Virus record (IMG/VR): IMGVR_UViG_3300045988_155041
Origin: a virus
Direction: 5' to 3' (one strand)
Length of the DNA: 39,568 nucleotides
The notes under the pieces: model-generated
What the model was told of the DNA's origin: nothing
Database searches by the model: none
The model's input: only the letters and a program-made list of their open reading frames with translations
Made by a program: the position numbers and the translations under genes
Part shown: positions 5,742-35,605 of the stretch, piece after piece
Numbering within the stretch: position 1 is the first letter of the stretch
Layout of the letters: every line of letters starts with the position of its first letter

Positions 5742-5755
5742 TAAGGAGGCAAAAA

Positions 5756-6642: not shown

Positions 6643-6655
6643 AGGAGATAATAAA

Positions 6656-7820: not shown

Positions 7821-7833
7821 AGCTTTATAATAC

Positions 7834-7858: not shown

Positions 7859-7877
7859 AAGAGACCCTTCTTTTTTT
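7850..7877 (+). terminator. Weak intrinsic terminator after the Rep gene
   Basis: agggt / accct stem with a 9-nt loop, followed by tcttttttt. Confidence 0.45.
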
Positions 7878-7902
7878 GTACTCTTTAAGCAGGAGGTTTG
7901 AG

Positions 7903-8421
7903 ATGAGCAGGATAAATTGGCGTAAAGTTGAGCTTGATTATATAAAAGGCACGGTCTCATACAGAGATATCGCGAAAAAATATAAAATATCAACTCGTCA
8001 GGTTAGCGACCGAGGAAAAAAGGAAAATTGGGTAGAAAAGCGAAAACAATTTCGCGACGAAACCTACTCGGAGGCTCTCGCGCGTGCGCGCGTGACAGAA
8101 GTAGACAATTTAAAGCGCATAAACGGGCTGACGGAAAAGATGATTAGTCAGCTTGAGGAAGCCTTGGCCGACGCCTCGCAGTTTAAGAAATATATTGTTT
8201 CTAAGACGATATACAAAGACGGCGTGCCCGTAGAAGATGAAATGACAGAGAGGGAATTTACTAAATTTGACGCTAAGTCGGTTAAAAATCTCACTTCCGC
8301 GTTAAAGGATTTGGCCTCTATAACTAAAAGCATTACTGAAGACAAAGACGGAGACAATGAAATTTTAGTGAAATTCATATCCGACGATAAGGAGGACGGC
8401 ATGGAAGAATGGAACTTGTAA
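7903..8421 (+). CDS. terS: Terminase small subunit
   Basis: ATG behind aggaggtttgag. N-terminal HTH-like segment VSYRDIAKKYKISTRQVSDRGKKENW. Overlaps the terL start. Confidence 0.7.
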   Translation: MSRINWRKVELDYIKGTVSYRDIAKKYKISTRQVSDRGKKENWVEKRKQFRDETYSEALARARVTEVDNLKRINGLTEKMISQLEEALADASQFKKYIVSKTIYKDGVPVEDEMTEREFTKFDAKSVKNLTSALKDLASITKSITEDKDGDNEILVKFISDDKEDGMEEWNL

Positions 8422-14748: not shown

Positions 14749-16485
14749 ATGTTATTTCCCATGCTGGACGAACAAAAGCAAAGCAGAAGCTATATACAAG
14801 CATTTAAAGGCTATAACAATAATTTAAGAATAAATGAAGATGAATTTAGCGACACAAGGAATATGACTTGTGAATTTTATCCTATTTTATCGACAAGGCG
14901 CAAGCGTTCGGTTAAAGCGTCGCTGATTGAGGGAAAAGGCCTTATAGCAAAGGACACTCTCGCGTGGATAGACGGCAATAAACTTTACTATAATGGCAAT
15001 GAAATAGAAGGTATTACGTTAAATAACCAAGAGCCTAAGCAGCTTTTATCTATGGGAGCTTATTTATGTATATTTCCGGATAAGATATATCTGAACACGA
15101 AAGACTTTACAGATTGCGGGTCCATGGAGGCGGCATACGAGACTGAGGAGAATGTGGTACTTACGTTATGTAAACAAGACGGTTCGGCGTATGAAAATGT
15201 AAGTATGAATGAACCGGAAGAACCTGAAAACGGAGATTTATGGCTCGATACGAGCGGAGAAAACCATATTCTGAAACAGTATTCCTCGACGACGGCAATG
15301 TGGGTACAAATTCCGACAGTTTACGTTAAAATCGAGGCTACAGGTATAGGAAAGAGGTTTGAGGAGGGAGACGGCATAAAAATATCCGGTCTTGAGCTCG
15401 CGGGAGTGCTGGAAAAACAAATAGAAGCGCTTAACGGAAGCAAGGTGATTCAAAGCAAGGATGATAACTATGTCGTTGTTATAGGAATTATAGACGAACG
15501 GGCGACGGTAAAGGGAATAACGGCGGAGAGAAGGCTGCCGGATATGGATTATATTACGGAGGCGGGAAACAGACTGTGGGGCTGTTTTTACGGAGTAGCG
15601 GACGGAAAGACCGTGAATGAGATATATTGCTGTAAGCTGGGAGATTTTAAAAATTGGTATTGCTATCAGGGCTTATCGACAGATTCTTGGGCCGGGTCTG
15701 TAGGAACAGACGGAGAATTTACCGGCGCGGCTACTCACCTTGGTTATCCTATATTCTTTAAAGAAGACTGTTTCCATAAAATATATGTATCGTCTCAAGG
15801 AGCACATCAAGTTGTTACCGTTAACGCGAGGGGAATACAAAAAGGTTCTTGGAGAAGCGCTGTTATAGTGAATGAAACTTTATTTTATAAATCAAGGACT
15901 GATATATGCGCGTACGACGGTTCTCTGCCTACAGGGTTATCAAATTCTCTTGGTGGCGGCAAGTATTTTAACGCGTCGGCGGGCGCTATAGGCTCAAGAT
16001 ATTATATTTCAATGGAAGATACAAACGGAAATTGGCATTTATTTGTATATGACATAGATAAAGGCATATGGATACATGAAGATAATTTAAAAGCGAGTTA
16101 TTTTGCTAAAAAAGATGATGAACTTTATGTCATTGCAGATAACAAGATTATAGCCATGCTTGGAAGCGAGGGCGAAGTTGAAGAAGATTTCGATTGGAAA
16201 GTGGACACGGGCAATATAGGCTACGATTCGCCGGATAAGAAGTATTTATCGAGGTTTAACTTGAGAATGAATATATCTCAAGGCACGGTAGTAAGAGCGT
16301 ATATTCAGTATGATTCTGACGGGATATGGGAGTCTAAAGGGACGGTAAAAGGCAATACTCTCGGAACGTTTACTCTGCCGATAGCTCCGAAACGCTGCGA
16401 CCACTGCAAGATACGGCTTGAGGGAAGCGGAGATTTTAAACTTTATTCGATTGCTAAAATATTAGAGGACGGAAGTGATGTCTGA
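14749..16485 (+). CDS. Large virion structural protein (tail/nozzle candidate)
   Basis: 578 aa, beta-rich, in the structural operon. No motif recognised. Confidence 0.5.
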   Translation: MLFPMLDEQKQSRSYIQAFKGYNNNLRINEDEFSDTRNMTCEFYPILSTRRKRSVKASLIEGKGLIAKDTLAWIDGNKLYYNGNEIEGITLNNQEPKQLLSMGAYLCIFPDKIYLNTKDFTDCGSMEAAYETEENVVLTLCKQDGSAYENVSMNEPEEPENGDLWLDTSGENHILKQYSSTTAMWVQIPTVYVKIEATGIGKRFEEGDGIKISGLELAGVLEKQIEALNGSKVIQSKDDNYVVVIGIIDERATVKGITAERRLPDMDYITEAGNRLWGCFYGVADGKTVNEIYCCKLGDFKNWYCYQGLSTDSWAGSVGTDGEFTGAATHLGYPIFFKEDCFHKIYVSSQGAHQVVTVNARGIQKGSWRSAVIVNETLFYKSRTDICAYDGSLPTGLSNSLGGGKYFNASAGAIGSRYYISMEDTNGNWHLFVYDIDKGIWIHEDNLKASYFAKKDDELYVIADNKIIAMLGSEGEVEEDFDWKVDTGNIGYDSPDKKYLSRFNLRMNISQGTVVRAYIQYDSDGIWESKGTVKGNTLGTFTLPIAPKRCDHCKIRLEGSGDFKLYSIAKILEDGSDV

Positions 16486-20949: not shown

Positions 20950-21018
20950 AAATAATAAATAAATTTGAGAAAATATAGATAAAGTAAAAGTTAGACTATG
21001 AAAAGAAAGGGAGATAAA

Positions 21019-22239
21019 ATGGCATATTCACAAATAGGATACGGCTCATCAGGAAGTGATGTAAGGAAGCTGCAAGAAATACTGAATGGCAAGGGATATA
21101 ATCTTTCTGTTGACGGACAATTCGGAGCAAAAACCAAGTCAGCTGTAAGAGACTATCAGTCTAAGAATGGTTTAAGCGTTGACGGAATTGTAGGCGTTAA
21201 TACGTGGGGAAAACTTACGAGCGATTCCTCGTCGTCTCAGACGCCCGCAACAAGTTCAAATACAAAATCGAACTTGCTCGGAGTATCAGATTATACCGCG
21301 AGTAATTTAAGCAAGTATGAGGAAGGATATAAGCCTTCTGACGCGGTTATAAAAGCGCAGGAATATTTGAATAAAGTTTCAGAAGAAAAGCCTTCGCCAT
21401 TTGTATCATCATATAAAGAACAACTTGAAGATATATATAACAAGATAATGAACCGGAAGGAATTTTCTTACGACCTTAACGGAGACATGCTCTACCAGCA
21501 GATGAAAGACCAATATCAAGTATTGGGGAAAACAGCTATGCAGGACACTATGGGAGAGGCCGCGGCATTAACGGGCGGATATGGAAACACATATGCGCAA
21601 AGTGTCGGACAGCAAACGTATGACGAATATTTGAGGCAACTTAATGATAATATACCGGACCTTTATCAATTAGCCTTACAGCAGTATAACTCCGAAGGCG
21701 AGCGTATGTTACAACAGTACGAGCTTACGGGAGATATGTATAACGACGAGTATAACAAGTACATGGACGCATATAATCAGTGGCTTGCGGAAAGAGATTT
21801 TGTAAGCAATAGATATGATTCAGAACGTAATTTTGATTATAACGATTTCGCTAATATGCTTTCTTATTGGCAGTCTATGGCGGGAGCCGAAAATCAAAAC
21901 TATTGGAATCAGAAAGATTATGATTTTCAGTTGCAACAGTTTGAATATCAAAAGCAGCAGGACGCTATAGCAAATGCTTTAGCGAGGCAGAAATTGGCTC
22001 TCGCGTCGTCGGGCGGCGGAAGCTCGGGAAGCGGCTCAGAGGAACCGGATGTGTCAAAAGGCGCGACACAAAACGCAAAGAATGTTTTAGGAGAATACGG
22101 AAAATATTTAGCTCAAGGAGGGGCAGGAGCTGATAGGCTGGCCTATGTTATAGAAATGATAGAAAACAGAACGCAAGAGGATGACGGGTTAAATAATAAT
22201 GAAAGAGCTTGGGTATTGGCGCAGTTAGCCAAAAGATAG
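21019..22239 (+). CDS. Peptidoglycan-binding (PG_binding_1) domain protein with a Gln/Asn/Tyr-rich C-terminal region
   Basis: GSDVRKLQEILNGKGYNLSVDGQFGAKTKSAVRDYQSKNGLSVDGIVGVNTWGKL. Start refined to the ATG behind aagggagataaa. Confidence 0.7.
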   Translation: MAYSQIGYGSSGSDVRKLQEILNGKGYNLSVDGQFGAKTKSAVRDYQSKNGLSVDGIVGVNTWGKLTSDSSSSQTPATSSNTKSNLLGVSDYTASNLSKYEEGYKPSDAVIKAQEYLNKVSEEKPSPFVSSYKEQLEDIYNKIMNRKEFSYDLNGDMLYQQMKDQYQVLGKTAMQDTMGEAAALTGGYGNTYAQSVGQQTYDEYLRQLNDNIPDLYQLALQQYNSEGERMLQQYELTGDMYNDEYNKYMDAYNQWLAERDFVSNRYDSERNFDYNDFANMLSYWQSMAGAENQNYWNQKDYDFQLQQFEYQKQQDAIANALARQKLALASSGGGSSGSGSEEPDVSKGATQNAKNVLGEYGKYLAQGGAGADRLAYVIEMIENRTQEDDGLNNNERAWVLAQLAKR

Positions 22240-22248: not shown

Positions 22249-25200
22249 ATGGCAAAAACAAAAGCTATAGAGTATTATGCTAAAAAGGCTAAAATGTTGG
22301 CACAAGAGTCAATAGATTATGAAAGGGAAAACGTTGTAAAATATTATTCCCAAAAAGCTAAGGCGCTGGCGCAAGAGTCAATAGATTATGAAAGGCAAGT
22401 AAAAGATTCGGCGCAGAAAAGAGAAATTAAAAAATTAGCCTCTACATATGGCTTTACCGAATCCAATATAGCAAATGCTTCACCTTTTGTACAGCAGAAG
22501 ATAACTACAAGCGAGAATAAAAAGAATACGAATATTACGCCGAGATATAAGACGGCGAAAGAAACAAAAGAGGCGATAGAAAATCTTAACAAGGATATTG
22601 CGACTAATGGAATGGCTTTTCCCGCTATTGAACACGGAGAGGCGTATCAATCGTTTTTAAAGGCTCGTTCTGAATATACGAAAGAGTACAAAAAGGAGAA
22701 GAAAACTCTGACAGATGAATATAACTTTCTTAAAGATAAAGAAGATGAAGCTAAAACAAAAGATTTGCCGGAGGACCTTCTGGAATTACTTGACGAATAT
22801 AATAGGGGCCATATAGATACTACATATAATCCGTTTAGTTACGCGAGGTCTCAAGACGGCTATAAATATTTCGGGAAAGAACTTAAATATGACGGTTATA
22901 CAGAAAAAGAACTTAAAGAGCTCGCGGCGGCAAGGAAACGCAAAACTGACGAAATAGATACGATTAAGGCGTTACAAGAAGCATATGAATTATCAAAAGA
23001 AAGCCCCGTGCAGGGCAGTATAGGGTCTTTAGTAGATAACTTCGCGGGAGGGGCTACAGGCTTATTTGATTTGGCCGGACAATATATAAAGGACCCTGAC
23101 AGAGATTTTAATGTAAACACTATGTCTCTGAGAAAGAGCCAAACCGCAAACGCGGCGAGGTCCGCGGTGTCTGAAGACATAGAAACCCCACTTCTTAGGA
23201 AGTTATATGATGTAGGAATGAGTATAGGAGACATGGTTACCGCCAGCGCTGGAACTTTGGGTTATGGAACACTCCCTATGTTTTTCGCTGAAGCAGGCGT
23301 TCAAAACGCTATAGACCTTACAGAAAGGGGCACTGATTCTTCAACGGCGCTTGCGGGAGGCTTAGCCGCCGGAACATTCGAGGTTTTATTTGAGAAACTT
23401 TCTTTGGGCAATTTAAAGGCTCTTTCACGAATGAACACTTCTACGCTGAAAGGCTTTGGAAAGGAGTTTGCGAAAACTGTAGGCGTTAACGCCTCTGAGG
23501 AAGCCGCGACAGAAGCAACTAATATTTTATACGATACTCTGGCTAACGGCGACATTTCTAATTACAGTCTTAGAAAAGAGCAAATTATGGCTGAGGGTAA
23601 AACTGAAGAAGAAGCAAAGACGGAGATTTTTAATGAATTTTTATCGCAAATTGGAGACGCCGCGTTATCAGGCGGTTTAATGGGAGGAATGCTTGCTCCG
23701 GCGGGAATAGCGGTAGGCAACTACAGATATTCAAAGCAAGGAAAAAATCTGTCAGAAGGGCAAACCGAGGCCCTAAAGGACTATTCTTCAACGTCAGGGG
23801 GAGAAGCAGGGAGGTTGTATAAAGAATATCAATCTAAATACAGTGATAAAAACGCGGCTCTCGGTATGATGAAAGAAGCAGCGGATAATGAAGTAATATC
23901 CAATCTGATTGAGTCGGAATCTTTGAACGATATTACGGAGGCATATGACAACGCTGTAAAGTTAAATACAGATGAAGGTACGAGACGAATTTTAGATAAC
24001 GTATATAACGCTCGCGTAAGTCAGATATTTAATAAAGAGACGGCGGGAGAAACAAACGCCGTTGTAAACAGTAACGGCCATACTATTGGTGTAAACAGAA
24101 GCGAGGAAATCAGAGGCGGCAGGAATTACACTTTAAGTAAAGATGATGTTGAAGTTATAAAAAGGACTGCCGGAGCAAAATTACAGGACGGAAGCGAGGT
24201 TATAATAAACGGTATTACTGATGATAACGGAGAATTAAAGTATAAGACAATAGAGGGAAAGGCAGTAGCACCTTCCGAGGTGACGTTTAACAATGATACC
24301 ACAAGGGAACTGTATCAGAAAGCCGCGGAAATAGAGGAACCGGCAAGGAATCTTTTCATAAATACCTACCCGGGAGACGTGTCTGTAGGCAAGTTCAAAA
24401 ATGGGTTTGAGAATTTTTATGATTCGGGCAAATTGAGCGGCGCGGTTTCTTTTGATATGGCAAAAGAGATGAACTCGGCGTTTCTTGAGAATGTAATAAA
24501 TGAAAGCGCGGCAAGAAAGGCGTACGAAGCCGGACAGGCGAGCATAACGGGAAACGTTAATATAAACGACAGTATTATAAGAAAATCTACCGCCGGAACC
24601 GTGGTAGACAATACTGTTGTGAATCACTTAGACGAAGGAGTAAAAGAGCTTATTGGCAGTATAGCCAAGAAAACGGGCATAGACTTTGAACTTACTGACG
24701 AGATTATAGCGGGAGAGACGGCAAGAGGGGAGAGAGTATACGCCAATGGGTATTTTGACAAAGCCGTAGTTAAGGCTGTTATATCAGGAGACGCTGATAA
24801 CGCTGCGGAGGCGGCGGCACATGAGACTACGCACTTTGCCTTTGCTTTAAATAATAAAGATATGAAAAAGGTTTCAGACCTTTGTATTGCTTATCTTGCC
24901 GAGACAAGCGACGCCAAAACGGCGGAGGCCCTTATAGAAAACAAGATGAAGAATGTTGAGACAAGGGAGGATGCTATAGAGGAACTGACGAGCGACGCTA
25001 TAGCGGGCATAATTTCGAGCGAAGAAGGGGCGAAGGCGTTTATAGAATATCTTGAAACAGATAAAAATTTAACTACTGCCGAAAAGAGGACTATTCTTGA
25101 GAAAATAAAAGACTTAATAGAGAGAGTTTTGGAATCAATAAAAGCTCTTGCCGGACAGGGACATATTTCCGATACGGCAAAAGTCTTCGCTGAGGCTGAA

Positions 25201-28200
25201 TATGACCGCGTGAGCGAAATCTTAAACTTATACACCAAGGCTTTGGACAAGGCGAGTGAAAAGTTAAGAAAGGGAGAGAGAGCCGAAGAAGGGGCAGGAA
25301 AAGTAAATACAAAGTTCTCTTTAAAGAATAAGAATATAACTGAAGACACAAAAATTCCTTTTGTAATTGCGGAGGAATATATTGACGTACCTAAAAATAA
25401 TAAAGCTGCTTTAAGCGAGTTACAAAACAAGGTGAAGCAGCTCCCGAGAAGTACTTATGAGAACAAGGCTACGGGATATAGGGCGGATATAACGGAAGAA
25501 ACTATTAAAAAGGCTATAAACCCTACACATAAAAATTTTAATAAACATAGTTCAAAATATATAAATAATTTAAACGCTACGCTGAACTTTTCTGAGCTTT
25601 TTGAAAATGCGGTATATATAGATACCATAGAGAACCAAAAGAGTAAAAACGCAAACAAAAATATCAAAGGTTTTCACCACTTCGTTGCACCTCTTAGAAT
25701 GAAAGGAGCAGACTACAGGACACTTATTACAGCGAGAGAAAAGAAAAATTCTAACACGTTATATGTACTTGGAGTAGAGGTTTTACCTATGAAAAAGAAG
25801 ATGTCTCAATCGGCAACTTCTTTGAGTGGTTCCCGCTCTAAGGAGACATCTTCTATGATTACTATACCTGACCTCATAAGAGATGTCAAGATATATAATT
25901 ATGATACGCAAGAAAATCAGACATATACACAGGAAAACATAAAATTCTCCTTTATTGGGGAAAAGGCGTTGAATAAAAACAATAAGTCTTTGGAAAAAGC
26001 TAAAGAAATGGAATCGGCCGGAAAAACGAGCGAGGATATAAGGAAGAACACGGGCTGGTTCAGAGGAGGAGATAATAAATGGCGTTTCGAGATTGATTCC
26101 AGCAAGATGAGAGTAGACCACAGAGGTAAATTCCATAGAAATTCGGCGATACGCCGCCGCTGGGAATTATTCGATAAACTACATGTTACCAATACGGCCA
26201 CAAAAGCAGATTTTCAAGAGCTTATGCAGCTTGACAGAACTCTCGGAACTTTAACGGAACCAAAGAAATTAGGGGATTTAATTGACTATCCGCAACTTTT
26301 TGAGGCATATCCACAGTTAGCTGATATGGACTTTTCATTTGTAAATTTGGGAGATATGGACGGAGGATATAGCCCGCTTGTTAATAAGATTTTTATAGAT
26401 GAAAGTTTGAAAGAAGACTCTCAGCAGATGAGACAGACGCTCATACATGAAATTCAACACGCCATACAGGAAGCTGAAGGATTTGCCAAGGGTTCCAATC
26501 TTATAGGGTTGAATAAAGCTATTGAGGAAGCAAAGCGTATTGAAGAAAAAACAGATAAACAGCTTGACGTGGCTATAGATGAGCTTTTTAGACTTCTTGA
26601 TGAAAGTGGGTATATTGAACAGTATGGCGAGGATATTGATGTACTCGCCGAAAAGGAACAGGATAGAATCAGGGCATTTTTCAAAGAAAACAACAAAGAC
26701 GGTGCGGAAGCATTAGAAAAAGTTATAAAGCTATGGGAAGAAAATACGCGGGCAATCACCGAAACGGCCAGACTCCAAAAAATATCAAGCCACGATTACT
26801 ACATGAATAGCGCAGGAGAAATAGAGGCAAGAGATGTTTCAAACAGATTGTATTTCACTGAAGAACAGATAAGAAATATAAGGCCCGATATAGATAATGA
26901 CGCCGCGATTGTAAGATTCTCTCTAAAAAATAAAAATATAACTGAGGACACAAAAATTCCTTTTGTTATTGCGGAGGAATATATTGACGTGCCTAAAAAC
27001 AACAAGGCGGCTTTAAGCGAGCTACAAAACAAGGTGAAGCAGCTTCCAAGAGGTACGTATGAAAATAAGGCTACAGGATACAAAGCAAATATAAATTCAA
27101 ATACGATAAAAAAAGCGTTGACTCCTACGCATAAGAAATTTAATTGGTTTTCTGAGGAATATATCAACAATTTAAATGGCATTTTAAGGTTATCAGAACT
27201 TTTTAAAACAGCTATATATGTGGACACTATATCTCCGATGAAAAATAAAAAAGATAATCCAAACATGAAAGGCTTTCACCATTTTGTCGCACCGCTTGGA
27301 ATGAAAGGAGGGGCGTACAGAGCGTTAATTACAGCAAGGGAAAAAGAAAATTCTAATACACTATACGTTCTTAGAGTAGAAGTTCTGCCAATAGAAAAAA
27401 CGCCCCTATTGACAGCTTCTTCGATTGGCTCCCAATCTGTGAGGGCGTTTTCTGAAATCAGTATACCTGACCTCATAAGAGATGTCAAGATATATAATTA
27501 TGATACGCAAGAGAGCCAGATTTATACACAGGAAGATATAAAATATTCATTGCTCGATTCTTCCGGAAGGAAACTAACAAAGAAGCAGGCTGAATACTTT
27601 AAGGGTAGTAAAGCGAGAGACGATAACGGTAACTTACAGATTGTATATCATGGCACAAATGAAGCCGGTTTTACTGTGTTTAATAGGAATATCAACTTTT
27701 ATTCAGACAGTAAAGAATTAGCTAAAACTTACAGTAACACTAATGGGCTGTATGAAGGCTACGCAAATATTAAAAATCCTTTAGTCATCGACGTTAAAGG
27801 TGAGAAGTGGTCAGGCATTCCTGTAGAATATATCGAACTCGAAAATATAGAAGATATTTTCAATGAATACGGAGTAGATACCTTTGAAGATGGTGGAATG
27901 GAAAGAACATCAACTGCTGATATTGCAAGTGCTATTGATGAGGCGGTCGAAGAGGGTCAATTAAACTATGACGGAATCATTTTCAAAAATATTTATGATG
28001 AGGGTTCCTATAGTTCGGGGATTGGCATTATATTAGCAAACGATTATGTAACATTTAACAAAAATCAATTTAAAAATATTACTAACGAAAATCCAACAGA
28101 CGATCCGGATATAAGATTTTCTCTAAAAAACAAAAACATAACTGAAGATACAAAAATTCCTTTCGTGATTGCCGAAAGGTACGTTGACGTACCTAAAAAT

Positions 28201-31200
28201 AATAAAGCTGCTTTAAGAGAGTTACAAAACAGAGTGAAGGAGATCCCAAGAGGCACGTATGAGAATAAGGCTACGGGATACAGGGCTGGCATAAATGGCA
28301 AAACGATAGGAAAAATTCTTAATCCAAAACCTAATTTTAATCCGTGGGGGAAAAATTACATTGATAATTTGAATGCGGCGCTATATTTACCAAATCTTTT
28401 TAAAAATGCTGTATATATAGACACCATAGAAAACCAGAAAAGTAAGAATGCCAATAAGCAAATAAGAGGTTTTCATCATTTTATAGCACCTATAACGATG
28501 AAAGATAATAATTATAGAGTAAAAATAACCGCAAGAGAAAAAGAAAACTCAAATCTTCTATATATTGTAGATACTGAAATACTACAAAATAAAGAAGATG
28601 TCGCATTACCAAACAATATGAATGGTAATTTCTTGACGACATCTTTTAAAATTAGTATACCCGACCTCATAAAAGATGTCAAGATATATAATTATGATAT
28701 GCAGGAAAATCAGACATATACATACGAGGATATAAAATTTTCCATAAAAGAAAACGCTACAAAGGCGGGAGAACTCCTTGAAGAAAACAGAAAGTTAAAA
28801 AGGATAAACGAAAATCTCATAGCGCAGTTTAAGATTACAGATGGCATGAAAATAAGAAACAATATAATAGAGGGTATAGCCCAAAGCCTTTTAGAAGACT
28901 ACGATAGCGAATATACTATTGACGCTTTGAAAAATGACCTTATGGCTCTATATAACTATATAGAAACAGCCGAAAATCTTACGATTCAAGACATAGCTGC
29001 CGGAGCGCGTATAGTAGGAGAAAGAATAGTAGAAAACAGAAACAAAAAAGGGATAACAGACGAAACAAAAGAAATCCTTGAAGACATTAGAACTGTCAAG
29101 ATAACTCTGGACGATGTTCAGAAAAAGGAGACCGCATATCATTTCGGAAGTTATGACAATTTCAGAAGAAAGAATTTCGGAAAGTTGAGAGTTACTGATA
29201 ACGGAACTGCCCTTGATACGAAGTGGCAGGAATGGGCGGTAGCCTATCCTCAACATTTCGATCCCAATATTTCTCCGGCGGACCAACCTATTAAGTTAAA
29301 CGATATAGTAGAAAGCCTTAGCGAAAGCTATATCGATACTCTCGGCATGAACGAAGACGAAGCTGCCATAATGGTAGGCCTTGACGTATACGAAAGGTAT
29401 TTCGATGTTCCGAGCGTAAAGACCTTCGCGGATAAAAAGAAAGCTGAAATGGACAAACTGAAGGCCGAGACCAAGGTTCTTATAAGGAGCGTAAAGGAAG
29501 AATACAGAGATAAAACGAAGAAATGGGCGGCAGACAGAAGGGAAACTGAATTAAAGCAAAGCTATAAAAGACGTATAACGACGGTAGTGAGAAGACTGAA
29601 TAGCACAATGGAGGCAAACAGTTACAGTAAAAATATACCGGACGCGATGAAAGGAGCCGTGTCGGAATTTATTAAGCCTTTTTTAAATGATAAAGAGGTC
29701 TTTGAAGAAGGAAGAAGTGCGAGGCTTGCTGATATGTATAACAGAATCGGCGAGAGAATGAAAGATGCGGAAGGAAATGAAGCGAGCAAGGATGACACAT
29801 ATGTTGACTTCATTTCCGCATACGACAAGGACATAGAGGATAGCATAAAGACCTTTAAAGAAGTTCTCAAAGACAAAACCCTCAATGACCTTAACAGCAG
29901 CGAGCTTTCTATAATCAAGGACACTCTTGACAATCTCTCAAAGATGTTAGAAACAGCAAATACTGTTTTTATCGCCGGAAAGAAAGCGAAGCTGGCGGAA
30001 GTAGGCGACGCTACCATAGCAGAGCATACTAAGGAAAAAGTGAAAGAAAGGCTGGCTATAACCGAAAATCAGTATTACAAGACCGTCAAATCCTTTGCAG
30101 ATAGTAATATTACGCCGGGATATTTTTTTAAAAGGCTCGGAGGGGCTTTTAGCGACCTATATAACGATTTTTTGGACGGTCAGGATAAATATGCCAACAT
30201 CATGCAAAACTCAAGAGAGAAGTTTAAGGAGATAGCTGAAAAGAACGGATATTATAATTGGGACAAGAAACAGAGGATAAAAATAGAAATAGGAGGAGAC
30301 GAACACGAGGTAACTCTTGAGCAGTTAATGCTCCTATATGCTACAGGCAGGCGTGAGCAGGAAAACGGCATGGAGTCTATGCACATATTTTCTGGCGGAG
30401 TCACGTTCAGAAATGCGAAAAAGACGAAAGAAAAGAAAATAGGGCCTATAAATGGGAAAATAAAATACACGGACAAACAAACCGGAATACCTATTACCTT
30501 TGACGAATATATAGAGGCGTGCGGAAAGCTGACGGAAAAACAAATCAATTTTACGGACGAGCTTGTAAAATATTTGTCTGAGGATATGGCCTCTTACGGC
30601 AATCAGGTAACGAGAGAAATGTACGGTATCAGTAAGTTCAATGAGAAATATTACATACCTTTTAACTCGGATTCTAATTTTATATACAGCAATTCCGGAG
30701 GTACGCAAGGGCTTGAAAACAGGCTCAAACACGCCTCATATACAAAAAATCTGACTTACGGGGCTAATAACCCGCTGATTTTAGACGATATTACGGACGT
30801 CTGGTCGGCGCATGTGGCGCAAATGGCTATGTACAGTTCGTTGATGAGGCCTATTGAAGAATTAAACAAGGTTCTTAATTATAAGAATGAGAATGGAATT
30901 ACTGTAAAGGCGCAACTTAATGCGACATATACAGGTGACACGGTTAATTACATACAAACCTTTATGCGAGACGTAAACGGAGGTTTGAGTTTGCCTAAAG
31001 AAGAACAGGTGATGAAGAAGCTGACTACACAGTTTAAAAAGGCCGCCACTTATGCTTCAATGTCGGTAGCCGTTCAGCAGCCTACGTCAATACTCAGGGC
31101 AATGTGTATGATAAATCCAAAATATTTTGCGGGCAGAAAAATAGAGGCGCCAAAAAAAGAGAAAAGACTTCAAACCTCGTCGTCGGCCGATTACGAACAA

Positions 31201-32430
31201 CTGAAACGATACGCTCCTATAGCTATAATAAAGCAAATGGGAAGATTTGACACAATGGTAGGAATGACGAGTAAAGACTATCTTACTCGCCGCGAATACG
31301 AAACGGTTAAGGGGAATGTAAAAAATATAGCTACAGATAAGCAAATGCTTCAGGATATATTAGGTTACGGGGCGAGCAAGGGAGACGAGATAGGCTGGGC
31401 CTCTTTGTGGAACGCCTGCAAGCGCGAGACTGCTGATAGGACTAAATTAAAAGGAGAGGCGCTTCTGCAAGAAGCGGGAAAACGCTTTAGAGAGGTGGCG
31501 AACTTAACGCAGGTTTATGATTCTGTTTTGTCAAAATCACAGCTTATGAGGCAGAAGACGTGGGGCGTGTCAATGATAACCGCGTTTATGGCCGAACCGA
31601 CGATAAGTCTTAATATGCTTATTGACGGAGTAATGGACGCGAAAAAGACGAAAAAAGCGAAATACGCGACTAAAACTCTCGCCGCTTTTCTAACTTCACA
31701 GCTGGCGGCGGCTATTCTTAAGTCATTTGTAACAGCCGCGAGAGACGACGACGAGGACAAAACCTATTGGGAAAGATTTTTCGGAAAGGCGGTCGGCGAG
31801 TCTTGGGGTAATATAAATCCTTTGTCATTAGTGCCTATGGCGAGGGATATAAACTCGCTTTTTGAAGGTTATTCCGTAGAAAGAGCAGACGTAGAGGTTA
31901 TTTCAAAGCTGGTAGACGCGGCTAAAAAAATATACGATACGGATACTCCTATAGGAGAGAAAATATCAAATATGATATTTGCCGTAGGCGATTTTGTAGG
32001 AGTACCGGCAAGAAACATTTGGAGAGATTTCAGGGCCATAGGTAATGTAGTAAGCGAGGCGGCGGACCCAAACAGGAAAGAGACGACGGCTTACGGAATA
32101 GAAGAATCTGTATTAGAAGAACTCGGAATGAAAAAAAGCTATACGGATTACGCCGAAGACTTATATAAGGTAGTAGATAAAGATTATGACGGTCAAAAGA
32201 AGATTCTTGAAGAATTGTCGGAAAGCTATAAACGGGAGATAGAAAACGGAGGGGACGCCGATAAGGTCAGGAGTAAAGTAAGAGGAGCTATAACAAGATA
32301 TCTAAAGCCTAAATATCAAGAGGCGGATAATTCCGAAAAAATAAAAATAAAGAAACTTCTTTTCAGAATACGAATAGGAGGAAAGGCGATTTATGATAAC
32401 GAAGATATAAAAAAATGGAACGAAGAATAA
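22249..32430 (+). CDS. Giant polyvalent virion protein (3,393 aa) with a zincin peptidase, an ART-type domain and a triplicated module
   Basis: One uninterrupted ORF with a strong RBS. Domain motifs are listed in the sub-features. Confidence 0.9.
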   Translation: MAKTKAIEYYAKKAKMLAQESIDYERENVVKYYSQKAKALAQESIDYERQVKDSAQKREIKKLASTYGFTESNIANASPFVQQKITTSENKKNTNITPRYKTAKETKEAIENLNKDIATNGMAFPAIEHGEAYQSFLKARSEYTKEYKKEKKTLTDEYNFLKDKEDEAKTKDLPEDLLELLDEYNRGHIDTTYNPFSYARSQDGYKYFGKELKYDGYTEKELKELAAARKRKTDEIDTIKALQEAYELSKESPVQGSIGSLVDNFAGGATGLFDLAGQYIKDPDRDFNVNTMSLRKSQTANAARSAVSEDIETPLLRKLYDVGMSIGDMVTASAGTLGYGTLPMFFAEAGVQNAIDLTERGTDSSTALAGGLAAGTFEVLFEKLSLGNLKALSRMNTSTLKGFGKEFAKTVGVNASEEAATEATNILYDTLANGDISNYSLRKEQIMAEGKTEEEAKTEIFNEFLSQIGDAALSGGLMGGMLAPAGIAVGNYRYSKQGKNLSEGQTEALKDYSSTSGGEAGRLYKEYQSKYSDKNAALGMMKEAADNEVISNLIESESLNDITEAYDNAVKLNTDEGTRRILDNVYNARVSQIFNKETAGETNAVVNSNGHTIGVNRSEEIRGGRNYTLSKDDVEVIKRTAGAKLQDGSEVIINGITDDNGELKYKTIEGKAVAPSEVTFNNDTTRELYQKAAEIEEPARNLFINTYPGDVSVGKFKNGFENFYDSGKLSGAVSFDMAKEMNSAFLENVINESAARKAYEAGQASITGNVNINDSIIRKSTAGTVVDNTVVNHLDEGVKELIGSIAKKTGIDFELTDEIIAGETARGERVYANGYFDKAVVKAVISGDADNAAEAAAHETTHFAFALNNKDMKKVSDLCIAYLAETSDAKTAEALIENKMKNVETREDAIEELTSDAIAGIISSEEGAKAFIEYLETDKNLTTAEKRTILEKIKDLIERVLESIKALAGQGHISDTAKVFAEAEYDRVSEILNLYTKALDKASEKLRKGERAEEGAGKVNTKFSLKNKNITEDTKIPFVIAEEYIDVPKNNKAALSELQNKVKQLPRSTYENKATGYRADITEETIKKAINPTHKNFNKHSSKYINNLNATLNFSELFENAVYIDTIENQKSKNANKNIKGFHHFVAPLRMKGADYRTLITAREKKNSNTLYVLGVEVLPMKKKMSQSATSLSGSRSKETSSMITIPDLIRDVKIYNYDTQENQTYTQENIKFSFIGEKALNKNNKSLEKAKEMESAGKTSEDIRKNTGWFRGGDNKWRFEIDSSKMRVDHRGKFHRNSAIRRRWELFDKLHVTNTATKADFQELMQLDRTLGTLTEPKKLGDLIDYPQLFEAYPQLADMDFSFVNLGDMDGGYSPLVNKIFIDESLKEDSQQMRQTLIHEIQHAIQEAEGFAKGSNLIGLNKAIEEAKRIEEKTDKQLDVAIDELFRLLDESGYIEQYGEDIDVLAEKEQDRIRAFFKENNKDGAEALEKVIKLWEENTRAITETARLQKISSHDYYMNSAGEIEARDVSNRLYFTEEQIRNIRPDIDNDAAIVRFSLKNKNITEDTKIPFVIAEEYIDVPKNNKAALSELQNKVKQLPRGTYENKATGYKANINSNTIKKALTPTHKKFNWFSEEYINNLNGILRLSELFKTAIYVDTISPMKNKKDNPNMKGFHHFVAPLGMKGGAYRALITAREKENSNTLYVLRVEVLPIEKTPLLTASSIGSQSVRAFSEISIPDLIRDVKIYNYDTQESQIYTQEDIKYSLLDSSGRKLTKKQAEYFKGSKARDDNGNLQIVYHGTNEAGFTVFNRNINFYSDSKELAKTYSNTNGLYEGYANIKNPLVIDVKGEKWSGIPVEYIELENIEDIFNEYGVDTFEDGGMERTSTADIASAIDEAVEEGQLNYDGIIFKNIYDEGSYSSGIGIILANDYVTFNKNQFKNITNENPTDDPDIRFSLKNKNITEDTKIPFVIAERYVDVPKNNKAALRELQNRVKEIPRGTYENKATGYRAGINGKTIGKILNPKPNFNPWGKNYIDNLNAALYLPNLFKNAVYIDTIENQKSKNANKQIRGFHHFIAPITMKDNNYRVKITAREKENSNLLYIVDTEILQNKEDVALPNNMNGNFLTTSFKISIPDLIKDVKIYNYDMQENQTYTYEDIKFSIKENATKAGELLEENRKLKRINENLIAQFKITDGMKIRNNIIEGIAQSLLEDYDSEYTIDALKNDLMALYNYIETAENLTIQDIAAGARIVGERIVENRNKKGITDETKEILEDIRTVKITLDDVQKKETAYHFGSYDNFRRKNFGKLRVTDNGTALDTKWQEWAVAYPQHFDPNISPADQPIKLNDIVESLSESYIDTLGMNEDEAAIMVGLDVYERYFDVPSVKTFADKKKAEMDKLKAETKVLIRSVKEEYRDKTKKWAADRRETELKQSYKRRITTVVRRLNSTMEANSYSKNIPDAMKGAVSEFIKPFLNDKEVFEEGRSARLADMYNRIGERMKDAEGNEASKDDTYVDFISAYDKDIEDSIKTFKEVLKDKTLNDLNSSELSIIKDTLDNLSKMLETANTVFIAGKKAKLAEVGDATIAEHTKEKVKERLAITENQYYKTVKSFADSNITPGYFFKRLGGAFSDLYNDFLDGQDKYANIMQNSREKFKEIAEKNGYYNWDKKQRIKIEIGGDEHEVTLEQLMLLYATGRREQENGMESMHIFSGGVTFRNAKKTKEKKIGPINGKIKYTDKQTGIPITFDEYIEACGKLTEKQINFTDELVKYLSEDMASYGNQVTREMYGISKFNEKYYIPFNSDSNFIYSNSGGTQGLENRLKHASYTKNLTYGANNPLILDDITDVWSAHVAQMAMYSSLMRPIEELNKVLNYKNENGITVKAQLNATYTGDTVNYIQTFMRDVNGGLSLPKEEQVMKKLTTQFKKAATYASMSVAVQQPTSILRAMCMINPKYFAGRKIEAPKKEKRLQTSSSADYEQLKRYAPIAIIKQMGRFDTMVGMTSKDYLTRREYETVKGNVKNIATDKQMLQDILGYGASKGDEIGWASLWNACKRETADRTKLKGEALLQEAGKRFREVANLTQVYDSVLSKSQLMRQKTWGVSMITAFMAEPTISLNMLIDGVMDAKKTKKAKYATKTLAAFLTSQLAAAILKSFVTAARDDDEDKTYWERFFGKAVGESWGNINPLSLVPMARDINSLFEGYSVERADVEVISKLVDAAKKIYDTDTPIGEKISNMIFAVGDFVGVPARNIWRDFRAIGNVVSEAADPNRKETTAYGIEESVLEELGMKKSYTDYAEDLYKVVDKDYDGQKKILEELSESYKREIENGGDADKVRSKVRGAITRYLKPKYQEADNSEKIKIKKLLFRIRIGGKAIYDNEDIKKWNEE
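24820..24834 (+). other. First HExxH motif (HETTH, aa 858-862) in the giant protein
   Basis: AAEAAAHETTHFAF. Possibly a second zincin-like module. Confidence 0.35.
25312..25949 (+). repeat. Intragenic module R1 (aa 1022-1234)
   Basis: KFSLKNKNITEDTKIPFVIAEEYIDVPKNNKAALSELQNKVKQLPR...KGFHHFVAPL...ITAREK.NSNTLYVL...IPDLIRDVKIYNYDTQE...IKFS. Confidence 0.9.
26053..26838 (+). other. Zincin-like metallopeptidase domain of the polyvalent-protein type
   Basis: GWFRGGDNKWRFEID ... LIHEIQHAIQEAEGFAKG (HExxH at nt 26446..26460) ... GEIEARDV. Confidence 0.65.
26914..27549 (+). repeat. Intragenic module R2 (aa 1556-1767)
   Basis: Paralogous to R1. Only the first residue and one further residue among the first 47 differ from R1, despite many synonymous nucleotide changes. 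Confidence 0.9.
27571..28080 (+). other. ADP-ribosyltransferase-like domain (ART-PolyVal type)
   Basis: EYFKGSKARDDNGNLQIVYHGT...FYSDSKELAKTY...IKNPLVID...IYDEGSY. The pattern is recalled from ART domains of polyvalent proteins. Confidence 0.6.
28114..28743 (+). repeat. Intragenic module R3 (aa 1956-2165)
   Basis: RFSLKNKNITEDTKIPFVIAERYVDVPKNNKAALRELQNRVKEIPR...RGFHHFIAPI...ITAREKENSNLLYIV...IPDLIKDVKIYNYDMQE...IKFS. Confidence 0.9.
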
Positions 32431-32730: not shown

Positions 32731-32988
32731 ATGAGCGACGAGAGCATTGTATTGATTTTAGGCTTCATGGCTACCTTAATCGGCGTTATGACCCCTATCA
32801 TTAAACTAAATACAACGATAACAAAACTAAATACCACTATGGAAAATTTCCAAAAACAAACTGAGGACAACCACAGGAATTTGGCTGACCGAGTAACCGT
32901 ACACGGGCGCAGCATAGACGAATTAGAAAAGACCGTGGCGGGAAACAGCCAGAGAATAAAATATATAGAAAAGGAGATAGGGAAATGA
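32731..32988 (+). CDS. Small membrane/coiled-coil lysis-cassette protein (XhlA-like candidate)
   Basis: ATG at 32731 preferred over the GTG at 32719. N-terminal TM helix plus a coiled coil. ATGA coupling to the endolysin gene. Confidence 0.5.
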   Translation: MSDESIVLILGFMATLIGVMTPIIKLNTTITKLNTTMENFQKQTEDNHRNLADRVTVHGRSIDELEKTVAGNSQRIKYIEKEIGK

Positions 32989-33953
32989 GCTACGAATACA
33001 TAACAAAATACGACAGTCCTAATTACGGATACCCGTCCAGCATGCCATTAAACCAGAGAACAACGGGGAATAATAAACCGGAGGAAATAGTAATACATCA
33101 TTGGGGTGAAGACGGCCAGAAGTTTGAGAATGTGGTTAATTGGCTGTGCAATCCGAAAGCGGGGACCTCAGCCCACTACGTGGTTGAGGCGGGAAGGGTC
33201 GCATGTATAGTAGACTGCAAGGACCCTGCGTGGCACAGCGGAAACAAGCCGCATAATTTAAAGTCTATAGGAATAGAGTGCAGGCCGGAAGCCACGGAGG
33301 AAGACTACAAGACAGTTGCGGAGCTTGTGGCCTACCTGTGGAGTGTGTACGGTAAATTACCGCTCATGCGTCACAAAGATATCGTCGCGACGGCGTGTCC
33401 GGGCAGGTGGGATATAGATAAACTAAGAGCCATGGCCGAGGAAATCTACAAGGGAGAAGAAGTATCGGAGCCGGCCAAAGAACCGGAAAAGCCTTCCGCC
33501 CCTGTCAGGACTATATCGGACGTATACGACGCCCCTAAGCCCCTGACAGTAAAAGAGGCTATAAAGGCCGGACAGGCTATATCGAATATCATATTAGGGA
33601 CAAATATACCCGAAGACGGAGAGTGGGGACCAAAAACTAAAGCTAACTGCGTGAAGATATTGCAGTGGGCCATAAATATGGATTATGGTGCCGGCCTTGA
33701 GATAGACGGAATCGCCGGAACTGCCACCAAGGACGCCTTGGGACAGCATACCGTGAGATACGGCGAAACACAGTACATGGTAACAGCTCTTGAGGTGTTA
33801 TTACTCATGAATGGGTATAACCCGCACGGAGTGGAGCTGCCGGGAGAGTTTGGCGCCGGCTGCCAGAAAGCTACAGGACAATTCCAATCGGGGAACGGCC
33901 TTACGGCGGATAAGATCGCTGGGCGAAATACATTTCTAAAGTTGATATTGTAA
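32985..33953 (+). CDS. Endolysin: N-acetylmuramoyl-L-alanine amidase (Amidase_2/PGRP) with a C-terminal PG-binding domain
   Basis: IVIHHWG...SAHYVV...AWHSGN...IGIEC...RHKDIVATACPG. The C-terminus has DGIAGTATKDAL and GLTADKIAGRNT repeats. Confidence 0.9.
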   Translation: MSYEYITKYDSPNYGYPSSMPLNQRTTGNNKPEEIVIHHWGEDGQKFENVVNWLCNPKAGTSAHYVVEAGRVACIVDCKDPAWHSGNKPHNLKSIGIECRPEATEEDYKTVAELVAYLWSVYGKLPLMRHKDIVATACPGRWDIDKLRAMAEEIYKGEEVSEPAKEPEKPSAPVRTISDVYDAPKPLTVKEAIKAGQAISNIILGTNIPEDGEWGPKTKANCVKILQWAINMDYGAGLEIDGIAGTATKDALGQHTVRYGETQYMVTALEVLLLMNGYNPHGVELPGEFGAGCQKATGQFQSGNGLTADKIAGRNTFLKLIL

Positions 33954-34126: not shown

Positions 34127-35536
34127 TTATAAAAATAGAATAGATGAGATCATGTTAGAATGGTCATTACAGAGGGTCACTGATTTAATTATTCCTCGCC
34201 AGAAAAACTGCTTGTGTTCATCATCGAGGAGTTTGTAATAATCAATAAATTCACCGGTTTTTAAAAGATCAGCCGTTTTTTTGTCAATTCTACTTGGGGA
34301 CAGGCGAAGACTTTCCATGCGTTTCTTCAAAGAAAAAGAAGTAGCTTCGTATTCATCTTCTTGGATGTTGCCCATTAAAAAAATCTTGTTTAAGCGATCA
34401 AGTTGTCCTTGGATTTTTTTCAGCTCCTCAGCGCTATCCCTGTTCTTTTTCATATTTTTTTGGCAAGCAGTTTCAAAATCGGCAAAAGCTGAACCTACAC
34501 CTTTTAGCAACGCAGCTTCTATTTTTCGTTCGCTAAAAGATGTACTAAATGAACATAGATGTGATACTTTCGCATTTTGGCAACGATAACGCTTGTAATA
34601 TTTCTTTTTTCTATTTGAATCTGTATATACAGACATACAGGACGTCAGGCGATTACCGCAAACAGGGCATGTTAAAAGTCCTGAGAAAATATATATTCGC
34701 TGGCTCCTTGGCCGGCGAGCATTATTTCCGAGAAGATTCTTGAGCTTTTCCGCCTCGTCTAAGGAAAGAAGGGGAGGGCGGTATCCGCCGATACCTTCAC
34801 TATACCCAAGATAAGTATCAATATTGTTAAGAACCTTACTATACCAGCTGTAGTTGCTGTTCATGTGATATTTTTGATTACAATAGTCAGCAGTTTTTCC
34901 AACGGAACCGGAGAGGAAAAAATAAGAAATCATATCGCGGTAGATTTTGCCTTTAATTTCATGAATTACAGGCCGCTTGGATCCGTCAACAATACCGACA
35001 GTATACCCAAAGGGCTGATTGCCGGACATTACTTTGCCTATTCTTCTTTTATATCTATTTACGTCCAATATACGGTTCCTTGTGTTTTCAGCCTCGTTCT
35101 CGGCTGTGGAAATTTTTATATTAACCATAAACCGCCCGTTGCTGGTGGCAGTTTCATATTCTTCTAAAATTGCTTTCCAGTGGACATTATGATCTTCTAA
35201 TATTTTTTGCATCTCATGGTATTCGCCCACGCGTCTAAACCAACGGTCGAGGCGTATAAAAATGATAAGATCGACCTTTTCAGGGATCACGAAGTCATTT
35301 ATCAGGCGCATAAATTCAGGACGTTTTTTGCATGGCTTGAAAGCAGATTTACCTTCATCTTTAAAAATGTCTACGATTTCAATGCCTTCATAATCTTTAT
35401 ATGCTCTGTCATTTTTAAAATTTTTACACCAATCATAAAGAGCGGCTTCTTGAGCCTCAAGCGAATAGCCATGCATAACTTGTTCCTGAGTGGAAACACG
35501 TATATATAACGCTACTCTTAAGATTTTCTCAAGCAT
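34127..35536 (-). CDS. int: Large serine recombinase (integrase)
   Basis: N-terminal resolvase motif VALYIRVSTQEQ, a recombinase domain, and the zinc ribbon CPVCGNRL...YRCQN. 469 aa. Confidence 0.9.
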   Translation of the reverse strand: MLEKILRVALYIRVSTQEQVMHGYSLEAQEAALYDWCKNFKNDRAYKDYEGIEIVDIFKDEGKSAFKPCKKRPEFMRLINDFVIPEKVDLIIFIRLDRWFRRVGEYHEMQKILEDHNVHWKAILEEYETATSNGRFMVNIKISTAENEAENTRNRILDVNRYKRRIGKVMSGNQPFGYTVGIVDGSKRPVIHEIKGKIYRDMISYFFLSGSVGKTADYCNQKYHMNSNYSWYSKVLNNIDTYLGYSEGIGGYRPPLLSLDEAEKLKNLLGNNARRPRSQRIYIFSGLLTCPVCGNRLTSCMSVYTDSNRKKKYYKRYRCQNAKVSHLCSFSTSFSERKIEAALLKGVGSAFADFETACQKNMKKNRDSAEELKKIQGQLDRLNKIFLMGNIQEDEYEATSFSLKKRMESLRLSPSRIDKKTADLLKTGEFIDYYKLLDDEHKQFFWRGIIKSVTLCNDHSNMISSILFL

Positions 35537-35576: not shown

Positions 35577-35605
35577 ATTATATTATTATACGTTCGCGAT
35601 GTCAA
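35577..35605 (-). promoter_or_regulatory. Integrase promoter, perfect consensus TTGACA-17-TATAAT
   Basis: The minus strand reads ttgaca tcgcgaacgtataataa tataat. It lies about 40 nt upstream of the int ATG. Confidence 0.7.

Follow-up and report, generated by a model that had tools for sequence, protein, structure and literature searches.

Predicted antisense small RNA genes embedded in the LPD3 modules of a giant phage polyvalent protein

The giant open reading frame and its LPD3 modules

The virus record IMGVR_UViG_3300045988_155041 of IMG/VR comprises 39,568 nt of DNA (this whole stretch is referred to below as the window) and contains a giant open reading frame (ORF) of 3393 aa at 22249..32430 on the plus strand, the product of which is identified here as a phage polyvalent cargo protein. 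Three copies of a ~210-aa module, R1 to R3, alternate within it with other domain cassettes, and a short peptide motif marks the cassette boundaries. A near-consensus promoter and a covarying hairpin, predicted on the strand opposite the module's codons, suggest that each copy is probably also the gene of a small antisense RNA that had not been described before. The two ends of the protein match phrog_22978, a family of giant phage proteins with no assigned function (aa ~658-1014 on the N-terminal side and aa ~2430-3320 on the C-terminal side), and a variable central cassette region lies between them.

The modules are located at 25312..25950 (R1, aa 1022-1234), 26914..27549 (R2, aa 1556-1767) and 28114..28743 (R3, aa 1956-2165), all on the plus strand. 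This is in agreement with a preliminary description of the locus, apart from the end of R1, which had been placed at 25949, one base short of the codon boundary. By profile comparison R1-R3 are copies of LPD3, a known but uncharacterised phage domain; matches to PF18798 were obtained with E = 2.9e-16 (60.1 bits), 2.4e-16 (60.4 bits) and 1.4e-20 (74.0 bits), respectively, relative to a gathering cut-off of 27 bits. Each module is comprised of the Pfam LPD3 domain plus ~30 extra N-terminal and ~60 extra C-terminal residues, and the three are direct copies with 60-82% nucleotide identity per segment and 62-74% amino acid identity. The cassette between R1 and R2 (25948..26913, plus strand, aa 1234-1555) contains LPD23 and a zincin (PF18838, E = 2.6e-21), with the HExxH sequence HEIQH at aa 1400-1404 (26446-26460, plus strand) and, in the window or in contig L002, weak matches to DUF6782 and SprT-like profiles. 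The cassette between R2 and R3 (27550..28113, plus strand, aa 1768-1955) is an ART-PolyVal ADP-ribosyltransferase (ART) with a PF18760 match at aa 1791-1950 (E = 3.5e-16). Bracketing of each effector by LPD3 modules, as originally described, holds in this phage, whereas in relatives the modules also form tandem arrays.

With three LPD3 copies, LPD23, a zincin and ART-PolyVal within one 3393-aa ORF, encoded by a phage in a structural module that adjoins a serine integrase, the giant protein is by its domain content and setting a polyvalent cargo protein in the sense of Iyer et al. 2017 (PMC5512222). Its position after the tail genes, together with the presence of an analogous phi24B protein in virions, suggests that it would be carried inside the capsid and enter the host together with the DNA.

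R1 and R2 differ only at residues 1 and 47 among their first 47, and their first 55 codons contain 18.0 synonymous and 2.0 non-synonymous differences (synonymous divergence, dS, ~0.95; non-synonymous divergence, dN, ~0.015), both as the preliminary description had reported. Its view of the modules as old paralogues with a peptide under purifying selection was borne out by whole-module dN/dS values of 0.10-0.21, with dS near saturation. The N-terminal ~47-55 residues (25312-25476, 26914-27078 and 28114-28278) are near-identical among the modules despite approximately one synonymous change per synonymous site, and a second type of this segment (RNKNITEDTEIPYVVNNSYITVQKNNKIAL) is carried by other phages. 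The occurrence of phage-specific types suggests a shared partner co-evolving with the modules within each phage.

A BECR-fold nuclease (PBECR) or an LPD domain had been the tentative guess for the module fold. The LPD half of this guess is supported by PF18798 (60-74 bits), while the BECR half is not: no PBECR family of Pfam matched, EndoU_bacteria reached 18.8 bits relative to a cut-off of 25.3 in R1 alone, and a Foldseek comparison of an AlphaFold model of R3 with the PDB gave no significant fold match (best E = 0.12, with RelE-like chains only at E > 1). Furthermore, the residues that would be catalytic are replaced in the otherwise well conserved modules of L003_267, L005 and L007, where GFHHF becomes FHYF or FYYF and AREKxNS becomes ARSGEKYD. 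The R3 model is an alpha+beta domain with a predicted local distance difference test score (pLDDT) of 77, in which module residues 162-176 form a disordered loop, and a search of BFVD retrieved only other LPD3 polyvalent proteins, with E down to 2e-8.

A conserved block overprinted by a predicted antisense promoter

A 51-nt block is identical between R1 (25863-25913) and R2 (27462-27512), exactly as first described, and R3 differs from it at 4 of the 51 positions. Gene conversion and a constraint at the nucleic-acid level had both been offered as reasons; the latter is supported by a near-consensus antisense promoter within the block, whereas the former is at odds with the same codons being frozen in other contigs. 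The minus strand of the block reads ATCATA(A/G)TTATATATC-TTGACA-17 nt-TATA(C/G)T, which resembles a promoter of the sigma70/sigmaA type. Predicted sites matching the consensus at 11 of 12 positions are found on the minus strand at 25861..25889 in R1 (TTGACA-17-TATAGT, with an AT-rich stretch upstream), 27460..27488 in R2 and 28654..28682 in R3 (both TTGACA-17-TATACT), where they overprint the codons of (S/T)-I-P-D-L-I-(K/R)-D-V-K-I-Y-N-Y-D. These three are the top sigma70-type matches in the 10-kb ORF. Three antisense sites at the 11/12 level compare with 0.22 expected for the ORF, and a count of three was reached in 0 of 300 dinucleotide shuffles. Elsewhere in the window, promoter matches of 11/12 or better were confined to the integrase gene and an intergenic pair in divergent orientation (39044/39166), both of which are places where promoters are expected.

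Codon use was compared across nine non-redundant modules. The fraction of same-residue pairs using the same codon was 0.85-0.90 in the block versus ~0.45-0.5 elsewhere, and the region of high codon identity spans (S/T)IPDLI(K/R)DVKIYNYD(T/M)QENQ.Y, with the divergent L006 module included. The codons ATA, GAC, CTC, ATA, GAT, GTC, AAG, ATA, TAT, TAT and GAT are synonymously invariant wherever the residue is conserved, and they hold across contigs with modules that are just 50-64% identical at the protein level. Unlike the block, the highly conserved N-terminal segment of the module is free to change synonymously. A predicted promoter stands opposite the presumed target gene at three sites, with hexamers that are fixed at synonymous positions in nine modules, and its overprinting would account for the 51-nt identity.

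The pattern TTGAC[AT]-N17-TA[TC]A[CG]T was scanned across 25 sequences totalling 342 kb, consisting of the window and 24 related loci, with antisense defined relative to the giant ORFs. It yielded 31 antisense matches (27 distinct) and 3 sense matches. These numbers bear on the simplest rival explanation, that the 51-nt identity reflects only recent gene conversion between paralogues and that the likeness to a promoter and hairpin is coincidental. Repeats inside one gene are prone to conversion, and R1 and R2 are 100% identical over the block with a locally low dS, as conversion would predict. Such an event would leave unexplained why the same codons are frozen in modules of other contigs that differ in amino acids, e.g. 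L006, and why 31 of the 34 pattern matches are antisense.

Other signals considered for the block were rejected on inspection of the sequence. A sense-strand internal promoter, internal start or frameshift is disfavoured by poor -35/-10 spacing and by alternative frames that soon encounter stops, and an antisense Shine-Dalgarno sequence with an ATG at the R1 junction is absent from R2.

Hairpins, terminators and covariation

Approximately 6-10 nt past the -10 hexamer begins a two-tier hairpin of ~55-65 nt with a T-run at its end. Predicted antisense RNA 1 (25782..25860, minus strand) consists of a ~6-nt leader, a 12-bp outer stem plus an inner stem, and CTTTTTC (free energy, dG, -23.3; z = -4.0). 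In predicted RNA 2 (27382..27459, minus strand) the hairpin is followed by TTTTTTC (dG -17.8, z = -2.0), and in predicted RNA 3 (28579..28653, minus strand) by CTTTATTTT (dG -20.0, z = -5.9). All three match the covariance model described below, the third with 91 bits. A hairpin and T-run follow every one of the 27 distinct antisense copies of the promoter pattern, with 19 different 5' stem arms among them. Free energies range from -18 to -35 kcal/mol, with a mean z of -4.7 relative to dinucleotide shuffles across the 27 copies. The antisense fold is more stable than the sense fold in 23 of the 27 (-26.1 versus -22.6 kcal/mol), with G·U pairs numbering 39 versus 29.

Conservation of the structure was examined with RNAalifold and with a covariance model. 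A plain MAFFT alignment of 25 copies yielded no structure in RNAalifold, as the 3' arms were misaligned, and an equal-length subset and the covariance model were used instead. For five equal-length copies RNAalifold recovered 19 pairs, 7 of them compensatory. The covariance model gave 28 matches, all on the minus strand. In its alignment 89.3% of cells were paired, compared with 66.5% in shuffles and 39-59% when partners were slid; double changes occurred in 17 of the 19 pairs, and the 110 compensatory cells (29 expected) were reached in 0 of 500 shuffles. Results are consistent with a conserved, covarying structure that ends in a predicted intrinsic terminator. Covarying stems, and a hairpin with T-run after each distinct antisense copy, are further observations that gene conversion alone would not produce.

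The hairpin lies opposite the codons of a hypervariable, disordered protein loop of low pLDDT, suggesting that the protein tolerates its presence. A search of 4227 Rfam covariance models returned chance-level matches only (E >= 0.2), with none at the elements. The sequence TTGGGA(A/G)CC(A) is common to otherwise different hairpins (R1 and R2 of the window, and L015, L019-L021 and L031), where the protein loop reads G-S-Q/R.

Several protein-coding interpretations of the antisense strand were considered and rejected. Frames downstream of the promoters are open but lack starts, encode hydrophobic sequence and are not conserved, as is usual opposite purine-rich coding DNA; the coding strand of the giant gene is purine-rich, with GC skew and AT skew of about +0.2. 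Two minus-strand ORFs inside the giant gene, at 24891-25430 (179 aa) and 26799-27266 (155 aa), have no conserved start and are most likely artefacts. A type I toxin-antitoxin arrangement was likewise discarded, since the predicted RNAs overlap an internal loop of the 3393-aa ORF and the antisense frames contain no conserved start codon or ORF.

Distribution of the antisense element

The element is found at the homologous position in marginal LPD3 cassettes (Pfam E = 1e-6, 1e-5 and 0.03) and is present in modules from metagenome-assembled genomes (MAGs) of Clostridia and Bacilli at 40-48% identity. A contig of 60% GC (L033) encodes a 3185-aa protein (1001-10558) with 4-5 tandem distant LPD3 domains, each with an antisense promoter and hairpin. 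In four of these copies an antisense TTGACA-17-TAAACT is followed by a ~75-nt hairpin and CTTCTTTTCC, and the -10 hexamer is spelled by the AT-rich codons AGT TTA, which are unexpected at such a GC content. Standalone LPD3 proteins of ~200 aa from Bacilli MAGs are without loop, promoter and hairpin together. Given that the layout recurs with different sequence in the 60%-GC contig and in divergent LPD3 cassettes, gene conversion as the sole explanation is strongly disfavoured and is regarded as very improbable.

Two further observations were made in these contigs. A Toxin_YhaV gene (L033 11328-11558) adjoins the giant gene of the 60%-GC contig. Weak minus-strand matches to the covariance model (E = 0.007-0.5) were found at L022 6648-6724, L028 6626-6702 and L029 6607-6680; each follows closely on the stop codon of a standalone LPD3 gene, and they may be ordinary terminators or remnants of the element.

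The cassette-boundary motif

At the protein level, six [KR][FY]S tripeptides fall at the domain junctions (aa 1022, 1232, 1556, 1765, 1956 and 2163), as the preliminary description had proposed with the fourth position, given as 1766, off by one. All are encoded on the plus strand. T-KFS-L (25312..25320) separates the end of the N-terminal region from the start of R1; IKFS (25939..25950) separates R1 from the LPD23-zincin cassette, and the Pfam LPD23 model begins here; VRFS (26911..26922) joins the zincin cassette to R2; IKYS (27538..27549) joins R2 to ART; IRFS (28111..28122) joins ART to R3; and IKFS (28732..28743) joins R3 to the C-terminal region. Two more [KR][FY]S occurrences, at aa 493 and 530, have neither the preceding I/V nor a junction context. 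The fuller form [IV][KR][FY]S was observed 5 times in the window protein versus 0.31 expected (2000 shuffles; ~15-fold, P < 0.0005). Across 68 large LPD3 proteins gathered by an exhaustive HMMER search, it was observed 90 times versus 18 expected, a five-fold excess.

The motif is kept in orthologues, so that it withstands the test of conservation that the preliminary description had set for it, and it closes cassettes in giant orthologues and in distant polyvalent proteins, in the latter in the form '..n(p)D-I-R-F/Y-S'. In seven IMG/VR contigs (L001-L007) it flanks the unrelated cassettes MuF_C, PBECR5, ART, LPD23-zincin and LPD3. Cassette content varies among orthologues, and the motif delimits the stretches over which orthologues are homologous. 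It is preceded by a polar or acidic linker, giving (D/E/N)-(I/V)-(K/R)-(F/Y)-S at every cassette end, and the Pfam models of LPD23 and PBECR5 both start exactly at the motif. The motif codons are free to vary at the nucleotide level, which indicates selection on the peptide. From these alignments the motif emerges as a general marker of cassette boundaries in this class of proteins, one that does not belong to LPD3 in particular. In L004 (aa 189-202) and L005 (aa 1244-1257) back-to-back motifs, NIKYS-NSDEE-VKYS, look like a precisely emptied cassette. Literature keyword searches found no description of the motif and nothing of relevance on LPD3, and Iyer et al. 2017 contains no cleavage-site text; the motif appears to be undescribed so far.

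Is the giant protein processed?

The preliminary description had the embedded zincin cleaving at the junctions to release separate effectors. Cleavage at the motif is possible, and the motif would then act as a docking or cleavage site for a zincin; otherwise it may be a terminal beta-strand permitting cassette exchange. Intact metallopeptidase motifs are present in the same polypeptide (HEIQH at aa 1400, and HETTH at aa 858 with Glu 912), and a conserved motif is present at the domain boundaries, but the latter is not tied to the HEIQH protease.

It appears quite unlikely that the HEIQH zincin cuts at all six junctions, freeing LPD3, the peptidase, ART and the C-terminal region. The motif is positioned exactly at cassette boundaries, after polar linkers, and is conserved in orthologues. 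The hydrophobic residue following its Ser would suit the P1' preference of zincins. Zincin-mediated processing has, moreover, already been proposed for polyvalent proteins generally (Iyer, Burroughs, Anand, de Souza and Aravind 2017, PMC5512222). The motif is, however, as frequent in orthologues without LPD23 and the HEIQH zincin (L001, L007, P0009 and P0072), and it is kept at natural C-termini where there is nothing to release ('..NIRY*' in L025/L026 and '..DDLKFST*' in P0035). AlphaFold places FSL and IKF in short beta-strands and not in a disordered linker, and several polyvalent proteins are delivered intact (PMC5512222).

A second metallopeptidase signature, gluzincin-like, was identified in the N-terminal conserved region at 24820..24984 (plus strand), with HETTH at aa 858-862 and Glu at aa 912. 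Its H, E, H and E residues are invariant in nine orthologues at 14-40% identity, the Glu being located ~54 residues past HExxH. The signature escapes annotation by Pfam, NCBIfam and PHROG, and the region has weak profile matches to the metalloproteases M48 and FtsH. If processing occurs, this N-terminal HETTH...E would be a better candidate protease than the HEIQH zincin. An HExxH is found in the N-terminal region of every examined full-length close orthologue that carries the motif, consistent with the junctions being processing or docking sites for this domain or for a host protease. That reading is nonetheless unlikely, since the fold is unsupported by Pfam and NCBIfam, the PDB profile match has an E-value of 0.05, and the distant, motif-rich P0072 contains six motifs and HExxH nowhere. 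No prohead protease was detected among the structural ORFs scanned, which were part of the ORFs of the window.

A purely structural role was also considered, in which the same short terminal beta-strand opens and closes each cassette so that cassettes swap without disturbing their neighbours and no cleavage takes place. In favour of this, strand predictions cover module residues 2-4 and 207-209, natural C-termini keep the motif, and the selection evident on the peptide and not on its nucleotides fits such a role, as do the breaks in orthologue homology at the motif and the resemblance of NIKYS-NSDEE-VKYS to an emptied cassette. The pLDDT at the module termini is just 60-73, however, and one terminal strand common to unrelated folds would be unusual, and a structural role of this kind is possible though somewhat unlikely.

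Phage context

The window represents a temperate, podovirus-like phage or prophage of gut Firmicutes. Its structural module includes the large terminase (TerL, 8409-9806), a P22-like portal (9793-11631), the major head protein (MCP, 12914-13978), an internal virion protein (14749-16485) and tail genes. The giant ORF follows these and is placed between the tail genes and the lysis genes, an amidase endolysin being encoded at 32985-33953 and the serine integrase at 34127-35536 on the minus strand. Relatives were found in gut metagenomes and in Clostridia and Bacilli MAGs. Megablast of the giant ORF against GenBank phages, phmmer of the whole giant protein against PDB sequences and an NCBIfam search each gave no match, and tblastn of R3 returned a single unannotated 5-kb record and no cultured relative.

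Additional features of the window were recorded. A perfect TTGACA-17-TATAAT is located at 35577-35605 on the minus strand, directly upstream of the ribosome-binding site and ATG of the integrase gene, and the divergent 11/12 promoters near the right end of the window, at 39044 (plus strand) and 39166 (minus strand), may form a lysogeny switch. A tandem 23-aa repeat (22260-22397; ..YYAKKAKMLAQESIDYERE / ..YYSQKAKALAQESIDYERQ), the 69-nt copies of which are 78% identical, opens the giant protein. The ORF immediately preceding the giant one (20998-22239) encodes 413 aa with a PG_binding_1 domain at the N-terminus, and its product may be a virion-associated cell-wall-binding or lytic protein. Although the genome is otherwise that of a tailed phage, the ORF at 6993-7820 has a match (E = 7e-10) to REP_ORF2-G2P, a domain of replication proteins of the rolling-circle type.

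Comparison with known systems

Processing sites of phage head proteins and viral polyproteins include (L/I)xE for T4 gp21, (S/A/G)xE for phiKZ gp175 and those of picornavirus 3C. Like these, the motif of the window protein is short and recurs at the domain boundaries of a packaged multi-domain protein with protease-like domains; unlike them, it differs in sequence, persists at natural C-termini and would be a putative cleavage site. The giant protein resembles the polyvalent proteins of Iyer et al. 2017 (J Bacteriol; PMC5512222) in being a giant multi-domain product of a phage structural module, in combining LPD3, LPD23, a zincin and an ADP-ribosyltransferase, and in being predicted to be packaged and injected. 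It differs in that no cleavage or junction motif and nothing antisense is described there, whereas in the window LPD3 is triplicated, interleaved with effectors and overprinted by a predicted promoter and hairpin.

In size, podovirus context and polyvalent-type domains the protein is similar to N4 vRNAP (~3500 aa) and to phi24B gp47, a 2811-aa polyvalent protein detected in virions by mass spectrometry (bioRxiv 10.64898/2026.04.10.717836), although no similarity to a solved structure was detected, its cargo domains are different and it lacks an RNA polymerase domain. It shares with the MuF polymorphic toxins of temperate phages (Jamet et al. 2017, PMC5576092) a phage-borne, modular organisation with exchangeable toxin cassettes, and two orthologues, L001 and L005, contain MuF_C cassettes; the window protein itself has no MuF domain and carries several internal cassettes in place of one C-terminal toxin. 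At the protein level, a known class is indicated by the domain profiles, while the predicted antisense small RNA gene embedded inside a protein domain would be a new element, one that the preliminary description did not foresee.

Cis-antisense RNAs are established in mobile elements, e.g. lambda OOP (77 nt), paQ, P22 sar, IS10 RNA-OUT and the SR4/bsrG antitoxin RNAs of Firmicutes prophages. The RNAs predicted from the window sequence share with them a length of ~60-80 nt, a constitutive promoter of the sigma70 type, an own stem-loop terminator, full complementarity to the mRNA of the same element and the dominance of one stable stem-loop. They differ in being placed wholly within the codons of a protein domain, in 3-5 copies per gene, and in being inherited with a domain family across genomes of 40% and 60% GC. 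In contrast to type I antitoxin RNAs, they are accompanied by no small toxin ORF, and they would target a late gene for virion cargo.

Proposed function and significance

The explanation favoured for the locus as a whole, to which a probability of about 60% is assigned, is that of a polyvalent cargo protein with a boundary motif and, within every LPD3 copy, a gene for a small cis-antisense RNA. Host RNA polymerase would transcribe a stem-loop RNA of ~60-70 nt from each LPD3 copy, with the 5' end at the base of the stem, a placement that would favour stability, and each RNA would be perfectly complementary to the cargo mRNA. Several points weigh against this explanation. Promoter activity, start site and termination are predictions, and the silencing function and the toxicity of the cargo to a lysogen are putative. 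The covariance-model alignment was fitted to the structure, so that its pair counts are inflated in the structure's favour; the R2 hairpin is barely more stable than shuffles (z = -2.0); and a terminator scan omits these hairpins, the loops of which exceed its size limit. L032 has a degenerate element only, and the Proteobacterial Achromobacter phage CF418P1 has none, which indicates that the element is not obligatory for LPD3 and limits the claim to a subset of LPD3 lineages. With regard to a role of the boundary motif in processing, N4 vRNAP and other polyvalent proteins have been reported to be delivered unprocessed (PMC5512222).

Alternatively, the block and inverted repeat may have a role at the DNA level, for instance by forming a recombination site or cruciform, similar to attC, through which cassettes are shuffled, or the RNA may be a partner or inhibitor of LPD3 in the manner of a type III toxin-antitoxin system. 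The conserved hairpin structure with variable sequence near the 3' end of each cassette, the differing cassette content of orthologues, and the strict association of one RNA with each LPD3 copy over large distances are all compatible with this. Transcription is nevertheless indicated by the near-consensus -35 and -10 hexamers at 17 nt, by a T-run that shares their strand and by a G·U asymmetry in favour of the antisense fold, and these features leave both the DNA-element and the RNA-partner readings less supported. Furthermore, the sequences examined by eye, for which no pattern search was run, showed no core sites resembling attC, the cassette boundaries fall at the peptide motif ~30 codons further on and not at the hairpin, and LPD3 has no demonstrated RNA-binding or RNase activity. 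This alternative is accordingly viewed as improbable.

Under antisense transcription, the most economical reading is that the cis-antisense RNAs would silence or tune the putatively toxic cargo gene in lysogens and in early infection, by analogy with lambda OOP/paQ, P22 sar, IS10 RNA-OUT and type I antitoxin RNAs, a function to which roughly even odds are given. The predicted RNAs are co-oriented with the integrase and lysogeny genes, and a search for trans targets of the three RNAs within the window returned only chance-level matches of 10-12 nt.

More broadly, and tentatively, at somewhat short of even odds, LPD3 in cargo genes may be a dual-coding unit, comprising a protein domain and a complete small RNA gene (UP-like stretch, -35, -10, stem-loop and terminator) that are co-inherited across distant bacterial lineages, and the RNAs would be a new and widespread phage family of regulatory or immunity function, acting as cargo silencers or LPD3 partners. 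The repeated LPD3 modules would then be kept at least partly for the RNA. The boundary motif is of separate use, since it marks cassette boundaries for annotation and engineering and provides a concrete sequence for probing the long-standing proposal of polyvalent-protein processing. If confirmed, the RNA family would be one that is absent from Rfam and invisible to gene callers, as its members lie wholly inside ORFs. It would also be among the clearest phage cases of long-term dual coding, with a promoter in synonymous positions and a hairpin in a disordered loop, and would suggest how temperate phages restrain toxic injected cargo. Few phage proteins are as large or as poorly understood as polyvalent proteins, and dual coding would offer a handle on LPD3.

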